From a phage, in the sequence record PZ583743.1: a stretch of DNA of 64,000 nt, one strand, 5' to 3'. Both the position numbers and the translations under genes were made by a program. Below the pieces are notes generated by a model, which worked only from the letters and a program-made list of their open reading frames with translations, was not told where the DNA came from and searched no databases. The number at the start of each line of letters is the position of its first letter. Position 1 is the stretch's first letter. Below are positions 32,710 through 38,661 of this stretch, piece by piece.

Positions 32710-34974
32710 TCATAATTTACAGGATGAACAATCTTCAGCTTTTGGAGTTTCTATTTCATAATCATCAGTACCAGAACCGTCACGTGTATTATGATAATAG
32801 AAATTTTTTCCGCCAAAATACCAAAAGTACAAAAGGTCATCAATCATTACAGACATTGGAACCTTTCCTTTTGGAAAAATCTGCGGGTCATAATATGTAT
32901 TCGCTGAAGCTGATTGACATACCCATTTCAGCATAATAGCTACCTGCGTAAGATAAGGTTTATTACCTTTCTTAGCTAATTTCCACGTATAATCATAGAG
33001 GTCTATGTTATGCTCAATATTGGGCACGACTTGATTAAAGGAACCCTCTTTTGATTCTTTAACAGAGACTGGTCCGCGTGGAGGCTCGATACCGTTTGTA
33101 CTGTTAGAAACTTGGGAAGATGACTCACATGGCATAAGTGCTGATAATGTGCTATTACGGATGCCAAAGAGCTTAAGGTCTTCCCGCAGCGACGACCAGT
33201 CACAAACGTATTTTGGAGCTGCGATTTGGTCAATCTTTTTATTGTACCAGTCGATAGGTAATTCGCCTCGAGACCAACGAGTGTCTGAATAATACTCGCA
33301 AGGTCCTTTTTCTTTGGCGAGCTTAATGGATGCTTTAATGAGTCCATACTGTAATCTCTCAAATAGTTCATGTGTTAAATCGTTAGCATCTTCATAAGAA
33401 GCAAAGTTACTTGCTAGCCAAGCTGCATAGTTAGTAACACCTACACCAAGATTTCGACGCTTTTTAGCTTTTTCTGCTTCAGGAACTGGATATCCTTGGT
33501 AATCCAAAAGATTATCAAGAGCGCGAACTTGAACTTCTGCTAATTCATTAATTTTATCTTGGTCTTGCCAATCGAAGTTATCCAACACAAATGCAGATAA
33601 CGTGCACAATCCAATTTCGGCATCAGGGCTATTCACATCATTTGTTGGAATAGCAATTTCACAGCACAAGTTACTCTGACGAATAGGTGCCTTTTCACGA
33701 ATAAACGGAGTATAGTTATTCGTATTATCAATGAACTGTACATAAATCCTTGCTGTTCCTGATCGTTCAGTCATGAGCAATTCAAACAGTTCACGGGCTT
33801 TAATACGCTTTTTACGAATATTAGGGTCTTTTTCTGCGGCTTCGTATAATTCGCGGAAACGGTCTTGGTCTTTAAAATAAGAATAATAAAGTTCGCCACC
33901 CATTTCATGCGGACTAAACAAAGTAATGTAATCGTTCTTTCCGAATCGTTCCATCATCAAATCATTCAGCTGGACGCCATAATCCATATGACGAATACGG
34001 TTTTCTTCTACGCCTTTGTTATTTTTCAAAACGAGAAGATTTTCAACTTCCAAATGCCAAATAGGATAATAAGCAGTAGCAGCGCCGCCACGAATTCCGC
34101 CTTGTGAACATGATTTAACAGCAGTCTGAAAATGTTTCCAAAAAGGAATAACGCCAGTATGACGCACTTCACCTGTGCCAATCTTAGAACCTTCGGCACG
34201 AATCATACCAACATTAATGCCGATTCCAGCTCGTTTAGAAATATACTCAACAATTGAAGCAGAAGCCTTATTGATAGACTTCAGCGAATCACCTGCTTCA
34301 ATAACAACGCATGAACTAAACTGTCGAGTTGGAGTACGACATCCAGCCATAATAGGAGTTGGCAGTGAAATCTGTCGAGTAGATACTGCTTCATAAAAAC
34401 GAATAACATGTTTTAATCTGTCAACAGGTTCATCTTGATGCAATGCCATTCCAATAGTCATAAATGCAAACTGTGGAGTTTCATAAATTTGACCAGTGGT
34501 TTTATCTTTAACGAGATATTTTTCTTTTAATTGCATCGCCCCGGAATAAGTAAATTCCATATCCCGCTCGTGCTTAATTTTTGATTCTAAAAATGTAATT
34601 TCTTCTGCAGAATATTTTGACAACAATTCAGGGTCGTATTTACCTTCATTTACACAGTAAGAAATATGGTCAATAAATGAACGGGGCTCATACTGCCCGT
34701 AAACATGTTTACGAAGAGCAAACATTAAACAGCGCGCAGCTACATATTGATAATCAGGCTCTTCAACTGAAATAGAATTCGCAGCAGCCTTAATTACAAT
34801 GGTTTGAATGTCATCAGTGGTCATTCCATCACGGAGATATGATTTAATATTTTCATATAATTCATAAGGATCTACAGATGTTCCTTCAGCTGCCCAAGAT
34901 AAAACTTTAATAATTTTTTGCGGGTCAAAGCTTTGAGAAACACCACTACTTTTGATAACATTAATTAATTGCAT
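32710..34974 (-). CDS. nrdA: Ribonucleotide reductase large subunit NrdA
   Basis: 754 aa, same length as T4 NrdA; class Ia RNR active-site cysteine context. Confidence 0.95.
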   Translation of the reverse strand: MQLINVIKSSGVSQSFDPQKIIKVLSWAAEGTSVDPYELYENIKSYLRDGMTTDDIQTIVIKAAANSISVEEPDYQYVAARCLMFALRKHVYGQYEPRSFIDHISYCVNEGKYDPELLSKYSAEEITFLESKIKHERDMEFTYSGAMQLKEKYLVKDKTTGQIYETPQFAFMTIGMALHQDEPVDRLKHVIRFYEAVSTRQISLPTPIMAGCRTPTRQFSSCVVIEAGDSLKSINKASASIVEYISKRAGIGINVGMIRAEGSKIGTGEVRHTGVIPFWKHFQTAVKSCSQGGIRGGAATAYYPIWHLEVENLLVLKNNKGVEENRIRHMDYGVQLNDLMMERFGKNDYITLFSPHEMGGELYYSYFKDQDRFRELYEAAEKDPNIRKKRIKARELFELLMTERSGTARIYVQFIDNTNNYTPFIREKAPIRQSNLCCEIAIPTNDVNSPDAEIGLCTLSAFVLDNFDWQDQDKINELAEVQVRALDNLLDYQGYPVPEAEKAKKRRNLGVGVTNYAAWLASNFASYEDANDLTHELFERLQYGLIKASIKLAKEKGPCEYYSDTRWSRGELPIDWYNKKIDQIAAPKYVCDWSSLREDLKLFGIRNSTLSALMPCESSSQVSNSTNGIEPPRGPVSVKESKEGSFNQVVPNIEHNIDLYDYTWKLAKKGNKPYLTQVAIMLKWVCQSASANTYYDPQIFPKGKVPMSVMIDDLLYFWYFGGKNFYYHNTRDGSGTDDYEIETPKAEDCSSCKL

Positions 34975-35291
34975 AAGTCCTCAACTTGAAAATCGTCTTT
35001 AAACAATCGGTTAACTATATGAGCTATTATATCACCATGACACGGCTTTGGTTTACATGTGCATCCTAGCCTCATTCCACGTAAAGGCTCTAAATGTGCT
35101 TTAGTTATTTCTCCGGATTTAATTCGACGTATAAAATCTTTTTTGAATAATTCAATGGCAGCCTCCCGGCTGCCAGCATCTTTACCGACGTAATTTCCCC
35201 AAAATGTACCACGGTGAATATTAACATCAAAGTCGGATTTATATTTATTCACTACTTGGCATAGACGGCCCGCGCGGTGATAATTCGTCAT
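34965..35291 (-). CDS. Hypothetical Cys/His-motif protein (nrdA.1 position)
   Basis: 108 aa; [12 protein letters not shown] motif; overlaps nrdA start and the upstream ORF. Confidence 0.6.
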
Positions 35292-35508
35292 ATTGTTTTT
35301 CCGTTAAAACAGTAATATCATAATAACAATCTGAAGAAGTTTTAACCGTAGAAATTTTATTATCAAAATACTCACGAGTCATTTTATGAGTATAATATTT
35401 TTTGCCATAAATTATAATAGGCTGATTTGGTCCTGGAACTTCTAACTCGCTTGGGTTAGGAAGTGTAAAAAGAACTACACCAGAAGTATCTTTAAATCGT
35501 AAAATCAT
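35245..35508 (-). CDS. Hypothetical protein (nrdA.2 position)
   Basis: 87-aa ORF; 47-nt overlap with the downstream ORF. Confidence 0.55.
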
Positions 35509-35531
35509 ATATCCTCACAATTAATAATTAA

Positions 35532-36392
35532 TTACACCGCCATTTTTCCTTTAATAGGAGGGTGAGATACATAGTTGTTAAGAACAAAATTATGCGGCTT
35601 TGCGAATTGACTCAACCAAAATACCTGTGATTCTGTGTCCCATTCATCAAATTCATCTGGAAATTTTAATTGTAATTCGCATAAATCCATAGGTTCACGA
35701 CGCAAAATTTCTTTACATTGTTCTATGTGATTCATATAGATATGAGTATTACCACCAGAAAATATCAAATCTCCTGGAATAAGATTACACATCTTAGCTA
35801 CAATATGAACTAATGCAGCATATGATGCAATGTTGAATGGCAAGCCCAAGAACACGTCAACACTTCTTTGATACCACTGCAAATCCAAATAGCCATTACG
35901 CACATTAAACTGATAGAACATATGACAAGGCGGTAATGCCATTTGCTTGAGTTCAGCTGGATTCCATGCTGAAACAATTTGACGTCTATCATTTGGCAGT
36001 TTTTTAATACGATCAACAACTTCTATAATTTGGTCTACACCGCCAAAATCACGCCATTGTTTTCCATAAATTGGACCAAGTTCACCGCTATGATATCCTA
36101 AATCTTTTGCTTGATTTTCGTAATTTTCATCCCAGACTGTTTTGCCTTGAATTAATGAATCATGCTGAATTAATCGTAAATCATTTACGTTAGTACTTCC
36201 TGATAAAAACCATATTAGCTCAGCAATGCAAGCTTTCCAGGCGAGCTTCTTAGTTGTTACTGCAGGAAAACCTTTACTTAAATCCCAGCGTAATTTAGTA
36301 CCGAACAGAGCAATTGTTCCTGTGCCTGTTCGGTCATCAGTTTCATAGCCATTTTCAAAAATGTCTTTAATTAAATCTTGGTATTGTTTCAT
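35532..36392 (-). CDS. td: Thymidylate synthase Td (uninterrupted, no group I intron)
   Basis: 286 aa contiguous ORF; active-site context …ALPPCHMFYQF…. Confidence 0.95.
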   Translation of the reverse strand: MKQYQDLIKDIFENGYETDDRTGTGTIALFGTKLRWDLSKGFPAVTTKKLAWKACIAELIWFLSGSTNVNDLRLIQHDSLIQGKTVWDENYENQAKDLGYHSGELGPIYGKQWRDFGGVDQIIEVVDRIKKLPNDRRQIVSAWNPAELKQMALPPCHMFYQFNVRNGYLDLQWYQRSVDVFLGLPFNIASYAALVHIVAKMCNLIPGDLIFSGGNTHIYMNHIEQCKEILRREPMDLCELQLKFPDEFDEWDTESQVFWLSQFAKPHNFVLNNYVSHPPIKGKMAV

Positions 36393-36437
36393 TTAGTACC
36401 TTATATAAATTATAATACATTTTATGAAGCTAAATAA

Positions 36438-36797
36438 TCAATACGGTTTAGCGTCAAATTTTCTTTCAATTTCAGGCGTAAAATACAATTCTTTACCACG
36501 CTTGGAAAAGCGACCAATAATATGATAATTATTCTCATCAAACGTGATATTGCCGATATCCATAGCTTTCAACCAAATATCGATATTTCTGTCAAGCTTT
36601 ATATCAAAATTCCAATACGGAGAACTATTACCGAAAATACTACAAGCGGATTCAGTGAAACAACTGCTATAAATCTTGTCTTTAGGAACTACTAATTGAT
36701 AGACGCCTTTAATAAACTGAGGACCCTGCCATTTTGGTTGTTTCACGTCTTTTTCTAATAGAATAGGGTAATAATTAAAATTCATATTTTCCGCCAC
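36438..36797 (-). CDS. Hypothetical protein (119 aa) located between frd and td
   Basis: ORF with its own spacing and an AT-rich upstream region; no recognisable motif. Confidence 0.6.
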   Translation of the reverse strand: MAENMNFNYYPILLEKDVKQPKWQGPQFIKGVYQLVVPKDKIYSSCFTESACSIFGNSSPYWNFDIKLDRNIDIWLKAMDIGNITFDENNYHIIGRFSKRGKELYFTPEIERKFDAKPY

Positions 36798-36805
36798 GTG
36801 TTATT

Positions 36806-37632
<827 letters not shown>

Positions 37633-37640
37633 TTTATCTC

Positions 37641-37976
37641 CTAATATAAAGGATCGGGAACATATCCACTAGCTTTAATCATTTTAACTAAGGTTACCAT
37701 TCCTTTGTTAACTGCTTGTGAGATTTCATCAAAAACTTCATCACTAAAAAGTTCTAACACTCCCTTCTGAACTTTTAATTTACAACCAACAATTTCGTCA
37801 TCGCCTATAGTAAATTCATTACCGCCAATTCCACCGAAAAACTTAATTACCCCAGTTAACTGTCTTCCACGAGAATATGGGTCATGTGATAAAGTAATAT
37901 GAGTCACCCCAGGTACAGTTTTAAATTGACAGCGAATGTTTACTTGGGAAATTCCAGTTACATGAATGTCAGACAT
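37641..37976 (-). CDS. Hypothetical protein (frd.2 position)
   Basis: 111-aa ORF. Confidence 0.6.
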   Translation of the reverse strand: MSDIHVTGISQVNIRCQFKTVPGVTHITLSHDPYSRGRQLTGVIKFFGGIGGNEFTIGDDEIVGCKLKVQKGVLELFSDEVFDEISQAVNKGMVTLVKMIKASGYVPDPLY

Positions 37977-37986
37977 AATATTTTCC

Positions 37987-38229
37987 TCAAACAGACTTTT
38001 TCACAGTTTTCCAATCAGCTTTAAACTGATCAACATCAGAATGGTAAATCCAGAATCCTGCGCTTTCTCCATCCTCATAAAGAGGGCATCCATCACATTC
38101 ATCTTCCCATCCCATATCACGTAAAAGATGTTCAGCTTTTTCAACGAGTTCAGAATCTTTACCGATGATATTAAAATACCATTTACCTCTAACTTCTGAA
38201 TCTTTGATGCTCTGGCGTTGTAATCTCAT
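37987..38229 (-). CDS. Hypothetical protein (frd.3 position)
   Basis: 80-aa ORF preceded by an early promoter. Confidence 0.6.
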   Translation of the reverse strand: MRLQRQSIKDSEVRGKWYFNIIGKDSELVEKAEHLLRDMGWEDECDGCPLYEDGESAGFWIYHSDVDQFKADWKTVKKSV

Positions 38230-38254
38230 TTTATTCTCCTTAGTTGATAGGGTA

Positions 38255-38284
38255 ATAGTATCACACTACTACCCTTCTGTAAAC
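38255..38284 (-). promoter_or_regulatory. T4-type early promoter (GTTTAC, 18 nt, TACTAT)
   Basis: Minus-strand GTTTAC at 38279-38284 and -10 at 38255-38260, upstream of the 80-aa ORF. Confidence 0.45.
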
Positions 38285-38661
38285 TACTTTTTGAAAGTTT
38301 TTCGCAAAAGTTCAATGATTTCATCTACATTGTTTTCGTCAACAATGCAGTGAATTTTTGTTACGCCAGAAACCTTGTCTTCGACTTCATCTTCAGAAGT
38401 CGGTTCTTTATACTCGCAGAAACAATGAAATTCGTCTTCGCAAATTTCTGAAAGTCTATCACAAAGGTGAAAATGCTTTCCATTAGCGCATTCAATGTGT
38501 TTTACCGCTTTAAATCCATTAGCAAAGAAAACTTCTTTAACTTCAAACCATCCGCCATTTTCTCGAATAATTTTAACTATTGACGCGTTGGATCGTGGGC
38601 TATAATTAATAAATGTATCAATAAGTCTTGGAACAAGTTCATACTTTTTGCCAATATACAT
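38284..38661 (-). CDS. Hypothetical Cys/His-rich protein (125 aa), possible zinc binder
   Basis: …HIECANGKHFHLCDRLSEICEDEFHCFCEY… cluster of Cys/His residues. Confidence 0.6.
   Translation of the reverse strand: MYIGKKYELVPRLIDTFINYSPRSNASIVKIIRENGGWFEVKEVFFANGFKAVKHIECANGKHFHLCDRLSEICEDEFHCFCEYKEPTSEDEVEDKVSGVTKIHCIVDENNVDEIIELLRKTFKK

Follow-up and report, generated by a model that had tools for sequence, protein, structure and literature searches.

In bacteriophage T4, the genes for dihydrofolate reductase (frd) and thymidylate synthase (td) overlap. The RefSeq record places frd at 145109-145690 and the end of td at 145112, and the four nucleotides that they share are ATGA, as the initial annotation of the DNA considered here had stated. 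Small, early and conserved reading frames of unknown function are interleaved with frd, td and nrdA in phages of this kind. They include frd.1 (DUF5417), DUF7247, nrdA.2 (DUF5496) and nrdA.1 (DUF4326), which have Pfam entries as DUFs, most of them because T4 carries them. Small T-even proteins of unknown function are also reported to bind host kinases, among them CoaA, Ppk and GlpK, and bNACHT11 is reported to sense such proteins (bioRxiv 10.1101/2024.12.17.629029).

The DNA analyzed here is a 64,000-nucleotide stretch of a phage genome (record PZ583743.1), called the window below. On its minus strand, an open reading frame at 36438..36797 that opens with GTG and encodes 119 amino acids (MAENMNFNYY...) lies between frd and td. 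Its upstream neighbor, frd (36806-37387, minus strand), encodes a 193-aa DHFR (PF00186, DHFR_1, E 3.7e-19). Its downstream neighbor, td (35532-36392, minus strand), encodes a 286-aa thymidylate synthase that matches PF00303 over its full length (E 5.2e-95). Thus, the initial annotation placed this frame, here called X, correctly. It was also right that td in the window lacks an intron, since the 286-aa frame is uninterrupted and an Rfam scan of 34900-38300 returned zero families, group I introns included. X resembles frd.1 and its companions in being small, early, conserved and interleaved with these genes, but it has no sequence relationship to them. Comparisons of sequence make it highly probable that X is an early, protein-coding and expressed gene, ancestral in the Tevenvirinae frd-td module, and that T4 has lost it.

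The 119-aa frame is a real one, although its product is most likely shorter. The GTG has no Shine-Dalgarno (SD) sequence, whereas the in-frame ATG at 36785 has GGCGGA-N4 ahead of it. The equivalent ATG is the annotated start in T2, T6, Sf22, F2 and Shf125875, and the homologs of X all begin there; a few PGAP calls use the GTG-extended start (P0028). For these reasons, a protein of 115 amino acids that starts at ATG 36785 is the most likely product. The features of the locus are as follows.

36438..36785, minus strand: gene X, a 115-aa coding sequence and member of PHROG 1928, with its start at ATG 36785 and its stop at TGA 36438-36440.
36786..36797, minus strand: four-codon in-frame extension to the GTG, without an SD sequence and probably untranslated as part of X.
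36790..36795, minus strand: SD-like GGCGGA, 4 nt before the ATG of X, kept in T2, T6, Sf22, F2 and Shf125875.
36798..36812, minus strand: left copy of a 15-nt direct repeat, TAAATGAAATAACAC, at the end of frd, holding the frd stop TGA 36806-36808.
36381..36395, minus strand: right copy of the 15-nt direct repeat, TAAATGAAACAATAC, holding the td start codon.
36393..36437, minus strand: spacer of 45 nt between X and td, with the td SD sequence AAGG at 36399-36402.

Downstream of X is a putative and weak promoter-like site, TTGATT-18-TATTAT (36441..36412, minus strand). No terminator for X was found, and the folding of RNA at the two start regions was not better than that of shuffled sequences. 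A MotA-type middle promoter was considered in the spacer between X and td, where the spacing of GCTTCA-N12-TAATTT fits, but the leader that it would leave is too short, and no claim is made for it. The spacer itself measures just 13 nt in F2 and Shf125875. Within the coding region of frd is a strong sigma-70-like promoter match, TTGACC-16-TATAAT (11/12; 37008-37035, minus strand). The interval from frd to frd.1 holds two further reading frames. One, 81 aa long (37387-37632, minus strand), has no Pfam match and is found in T6 and T2, but not in T4; the other, of 111 aa (37641-37976, minus strand), matches DUF7247 and is found in T6, but not in T2 or T4. As T4 has neither, the region upstream of frd is likewise shorter there.

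That X encodes a protein is evident from the way in which it has diverged. Among six phages, pairs of X genes carry 11-35 synonymous and 0-11 non-synonymous differences, and dN/dS is 0.00-0.05 in 14 of the 15 pairs; the remaining pair, F2 and Shf125875, has two differing sites only. In the same genomes, dN/dS is 0.02-0.07 for td (first 540 nt) and 0.11-0.27 for frd, the latter from codon-aligned sequences, with the ungapped values for the window against F2 and Shf125875 disregarded because an indel inflates them. X is under very strong purifying selection, stronger than that on frd, and is constrained as tightly as thymidylate synthase. Between the window and F2 or Shf125875, the identity of X is 92-93%, and Frd (84%) and Td (80-81%) are less alike. 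X matches the PHROG 1928 HMM (E 1.6e-35, 122.7 bits), with residues 8-115 aligned to positions 2-125 of the 126 in the profile. The dN/dS values and this match together imply that X is not a chance open reading frame, and the view that it is spurious is effectively excluded. Its GC content (32.8%, against 35.8% for the window) is unremarkable. Nor were the hallmarks of a moron found for X, these being a narrow or patchy distribution, an atypical composition, and a promoter and terminator of its own.

Alignment of the window with T4 shows a clean indel of 417 nt; X is absent from T4, and present in T2 and T6. The indel is bounded by the 15-nt direct repeat, which is imperfect, with 13 of 15 positions matching and the first 9 nt identical. 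The same 13/15 repeat was found independently by a repeat search, and 37 of 5000 shuffles gave one as good. Recombination in the 9-nt core removes 417 nt and gives the exact T4 sequence.

The flanking genes indicate the direction of the change. T4 and T6 are separated by a dS of 0.11 in frd and of 0.15 in td; among themselves, the X-carrying phages differ by 0.11-0.31, a range that includes both values. Over the 100 nt on either side of the junction there are 1-7 differences, as there are between X-carrying phages. The synonymous diversity of X (0.20-0.33) is that of its flanks, which means that X has been in the genus for as long as the diversity sampled. Given that the flanks of T4 nest among those of X-carrying phages, and that X is old in the genus, the state of T4 reads as a loss. 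Thus, T4 most likely lost X, and its ATGA overlap is most likely a derived deletion. Here, recombination between repeats of 9-15 nt, one where frd ends and one where td begins, would have removed X in T4 and in a few relatives, and the removal would have created the textbook ATGA overlap.

The left repeat looks like a scar of the td start, of which it is a degenerate version in frame with X (ATGAAATAAC versus ATGAAACAAT). A CAA-to-TAA change within it makes a mini-ORF, ATG-AAA-TAA (36801-36809, minus strand), which overlaps the frd stop and is kept in the window, T2, T6 and Sf22. The mini-ORF resembles a disabled td start, and might serve as a site at which translation terminates and re-initiates. 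Illegitimate recombination may at one time have set the X allele of Tequatrovirus and Mosigvirus into an ATGA junction. Such a placement would, of course, predate the diversification of the genus, and X would still not be lineage-specific. A linkage of X to the td intron was also considered and rejected, as the two occur together in T6, X without the intron in T2, and the intron without X in T4.

The initial annotation had proposed that X may be specific to a lineage. The distribution of X contradicts this. The 413-nt frd-td interval is present, at a coverage of at least 80%, in 363 phage records, which include T2, T6, many RB phages, and Tequatroviruses of Shigella, Yersinia and Salmonella; in T6, X has also been noted as RB32ORF229c. 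A 40-nt probe across the T4 junction matches 43 records. The junction itself is spanned in about 35, and a third of these 35 are isolates or derivatives of T4. From these two counts, X is present in about 90% of Tequatrovirus-like records.

Beyond the genus, a tblastn search found 221 further records that carry copies of X below 60% identity, nearly always annotated beside DHFR and thymidylate synthase; Klebsiella, Enterobacter, Salmonella, Citrobacter, Serratia and Erwinia are among the hosts. No fewer than eight further genera (Jiaoda-, Kanagawa-, Marfa-, Winkler-, Gelderland-, Moon-, Karam- and Mosigvirus) have relatives of X, with 30-64% identity, in the same frd-td slot. The order is frd-X-td in KP179 (Jiaodavirus), and frd-X-ORF-td in Q7622 (Kanagawavirus), R3_1 (Marfavirus), CHI14 (Winklervirus), STML-198 (Gelderlandvirus), Citrobacter phage Ursula and one Logan contig. 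X lies directly 3' of frd and 5' of td, in the orientation that all three share, in the window, T2, T6, Sf22, F2, Shf125875 and all 25 of the diverged loci that are described below. As the identity of X falls from 64% to 48% to 36%, that of Frd goes from 50% to 51% to 45%. The divergence of X roughly tracks that of Frd, which is consistent with long co-inheritance.

An exhaustive phmmer search of 1.84 billion representative proteins (50%-identity clusters) gave 16 matches, among which an 838-aa TPR protein (P0017) is spurious. A profile search gave 25 proteins of 109-119 aa, all on T4-like contigs, with no fusions or informative names among them. On these searches, the family of X is very small and restricted to phages.

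The additional frame that follows X in other Tevenvirinae, here called X', is a paralog of X (for example, YP_009147956.1 in STML-198 and YP_009609560.1 in CHI14). Aligned by hhalign with the profile of X, it has a probability of 99.2% and an E of 7.7e-20, and it too matches PHROG 1928. The two share an N-terminal QKKW motif, a C-terminal GRFxKxGxEI motif and their place in the frd-td interval; unlike X, X' carries about 19 additional residues, inserted after QKKW. X' occurs in 123 records, always adjoining td. It was not found in Tequatrovirus-like records, and the window holds no X' and no second copy of X.

Labeling with HMMs covered 25 diverged loci from 23 distinct phages, 18 of them obtained from IMG/VR by way of X'. 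All 25 have frd upstream and td downstream. The order is frd-X-X'-td in 21 of them; one has X only, two have X' only, and in Marfa X is largely deleted. In Klebsiella phage Marfa, X is a short remnant (2868-2990) beside an intact X', and the loci with only X' are L028 and L029. The paralog that has been lost differs from lineage to lineage. In Citrobacter phage Ursula, X (about 1983-2309) is unannotated, and the coding sequence labeled phrog 1928 (2182-2634) is X' given too long an N-terminus, probably through an error in gene calling. Several genera have one more reading frame between X' and td (L006, 4670-4879; L010, 2648-2854; L025, 3248-3559; also L015, L017 and L032). Where read, it has about 68 codons, begins MSNKLKVKDVP..., and is a further variable occupant of the interval.

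In seven lineages, X begins before frd has ended, with an overlap of 1-20 nt at the frd stop, and X' and td often overlap as well, which points to translational coupling along frd-X-X'-td. In the window, the start of X does not overlap the frd stop; rather, a 20-nt gap holds the mini-ORF ATGAAATAA. The common arrangement in T4-like phages, probably the ancestral one, is a block of four genes, frd-X-X'-td, with overlapping stops and starts. Taken jointly with the identity and evolution proposed for X, it is very likely that Tequatrovirus kept only X of the pair.

The initial annotation had also called the junction between frd and td a target for insertion. In part this stands, as flanking comparisons mark the junction as a real recombination seam at which modules have been swapped. 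Shf125875 (a Mosigvirus) and F2 have a Tequatrovirus-like frd (dS 0.37-0.46) and an RB69-like td (dS 0.5-0.6), with X between the two; their frd is longer by 12 codons and overlaps X by 11 nt. F2 is classed as a Tequatrovirus and Shf125875 as a Mosigvirus, yet their frd-X-td regions are nearly identical. In ECO07P1 and CJY920, which have no X, a T2-like frd is joined to td at an ATGA junction (about 721). That td differs from Tequatrovirus td at 131-139 of 540 positions, and from every td compared at 115-147 (21-27%); in the annotated record, ECO07P1, it carries an intron. These two phages apparently represent a second and independent X-less junction at the same motif. RB69 has the same ATGA junction, also without X, and a very divergent frd.

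The part of the claim that does not stand is that X arrived at this seam recently. The idea that X is cargo lately inserted there would account for the clean ATGA junction of T4 and RB69, for a leader in which the degenerate in-frame td start looks like the scar of an insertion, and for the swapping of modules. Yet X is found in T2, T6, some nine-tenths of Tequatrovirus-like records and at least eight other genera, its GC content is ordinary, its synonymous divergence equals that of its flanks, and the flanks of T4 are nested. A recent insertion is accordingly very improbable; the distribution of X and the nesting of the flanks mean that any insertion predates the diversification of the genus, and it is T4 that has the derived state. 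Still harder to credit is the view that X is a homing endonuclease or the remnant of some other mobile element. Two records (MZ501106.1 and MZ501052.1) annotate X as "putative homing endonuclease", and X is polymorphic for presence near a mobile td intron. But X has no match to GIY-YIG, HNH or any other nuclease in Pfam or PHROG, even at E 1-10, and conserves neither His, Asp or Glu nor a Tyr-Gly motif. Its 115 aa fall short of the length of the Seg and Mob proteins. It is under strong purifying selection, is syntenic across genera, and diverges in step with Frd, unlike homing endonucleases, which are sporadic. T6 carries X together with the I-TevI intron, and the two are independent. An ancestral gene lost in T4 remains our preferred account of X.

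What the protein does must be approached largely through its conserved residues and a predicted structure. The initial annotation had assigned X no function, and this was borne out. PHROG 1928 is itself a family of unknown function. Searches of Pfam (with the single protein at E up to 10, and also with all 18 + 5 members of the family), of NCBIfam, of PADLOC and of PDB sequence profiles gave nothing meaningful, and no other PHROG was found at E up to 1. An AlphaFold2 model, built from an alignment of 18 sequences, predicts a small beta-barrel with one helix (pLDDT 89.9, pTM 0.83). The strands of the model are 6-12, 27-34, 38-40, 48-50, 62-64, 80-82, 86-96 and 99-104, the helix is 68-77, and the GRFxKxG motif lies on the C-terminal hairpin. 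Structural matches to the model are only weak, and are mostly OB folds (HIN, Cdc13, Teb1, S1, RPA14/32, RMI, Stn1-Ten1, SSB and RuvA domain I). The model resembles the OB-fold domains of RPA, Cdc13/Teb1, S1 and HIN in being a small beta-barrel with a helix between the third and fourth principal strands.

Across X and X', residues W19, G27, G91, K95 and G97 are invariant, and L9, Q16, Y29, R92, F93 and F102 nearly so. No Asp, Glu, His, Cys or Ser is conserved across the two, which argues against catalysis by X. The conserved Arg and Lys, the aromatic residues and the Gln would suit an anionic ligand, and the family is mildly basic (median pI 8.7). On the model and the pattern of conservation, the chances that X is a non-catalytic binding protein are about even.

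For a protein of this kind, the rationale for proposing a partner comes from the company that its gene keeps. X has a fixed place between frd and td, appears coupled to frd, evolves slowly, and belongs to a pair of paralogs that has been retained; these facts favor a partner in the thymidylate cycle or in the dNTP-synthetase machinery, although the suggestion is a tentative one. The mechanism envisioned is that the synthesis of X would keep pace with that of Frd through translational coupling or, in the window, through re-initiation after the MK* mini-ORF; that X would bind an anionic ligand or a partner protein; and that it would be helpful but not essential, most likely in the setting of the thymidylate cycle and dNTP synthesis. 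Losses of X have been recurrent and T4 and RB69 thrive without it, which implies that X is conditionally dispensable. This, in turn, keeps alive the model that X acts in host takeover or counter-defense, riding in the frd-td early unit as a binder that neutralizes a host enzyme or immune protein. A small protein, restricted to phages, without a recognizable domain, dispensable in T4 and RB69 and repeatedly lost, would fit such a role, and there is precedent in the T-even small proteins that bind host kinases or are sensed by bNACHT11 (bioRxiv 10.1101/2024.12.17.629029). However, a gene engaged in an arms race would not be expected to evolve as slowly as X (dN/dS 0.00-0.05), and the position of X is stable over many genera with different hosts, in which the pair of paralogs is retained. 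PADLOC gives X no signal, its library being one of defense rather than anti-defense proteins. The T2 proteins gp6, gp9, gp46 and gp57 of the paper on activators of bNACHT11 are products of genes other than X (bioRxiv 10.1101/2024.12.17.629029). We regard this role as doubtful. A role as an OB-like binder of single-stranded DNA or mRNA, which might tune how the frd and td mRNA is translated or connect replication with the synthesis of nucleotides, is more doubtful still. The dominance of OB folds among the structural matches speaks for it, as does an order of secondary structures that fits beta1-3, helix, beta4-5; R92, K95, W19, Y29 and F93, all conserved, and the basic pI would suit contact with nucleic acid. 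Taken as a whole, the best explanation is that X is an ancestral gene, lost in T4, whose product is a binding protein near the thymidylate and dNTP machinery, and on balance we hold this to be somewhat probable.

X is not, of course, new to the databases; it is cataloged but uncharacterized. The same gene is PHROG 1928, RB32ORF229c, AXN58269.1 of T6 and gp131 of Sf22. RB18 is among the phages that encode a protein 100% identical to X, and X falls in a cluster of 154 members, of which the named ones read so far are all "hypothetical protein". X has no Pfam entry, though its small neighbors have one, and a search of the literature for the reading frame found no paper. Elsewhere it is misnamed as a putative homing endonuclease, a putative glucose-1-phosphate adenylyltransferase or a putative dihydrofolate reductase (MZ501106.1, MZ501052.1, NC_054937.1, OR125554.1 and MW749000.1), and no domain search supports these names. 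For the adenylyltransferase (NC_054937.1, OR125554.1), the NTP_transferase domain is absent, and there is no match in Pfam or NCBIfam. In the T2 RefSeq record (NC_054931.1/LC348380), the frd-td interval at 138707-139119, which corresponds to 36393-36805 of the window, is unannotated, although the 115-aa frame is intact. Screens built on that annotation would miss X; the T2 record used in the bNACHT11 paper does not annotate it (bioRxiv 10.1101/2024.12.17.629029).

What comparison adds is that the ATGA overlap of T4 is most likely derived, and that a block of four genes is common and probably ancestral. X is a well-defined target for work on nucleotide metabolism and accessory genes in T-even phages, being constrained and yet without a Pfam family, a structural relative or a literature. 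T2 or T6, set against T4, is a natural pair in which X is present and absent, available for a clean genetic test. It may even be, though we think it unlikely, that X and X' form a dedicated and unrecognized binding subunit of the thymidylate-cycle or dNTP-synthetase machinery, a beta-barrel without a solved relative. If so, X would have been overlooked for 60 years because T4 and RB69 happen to have deleted it.
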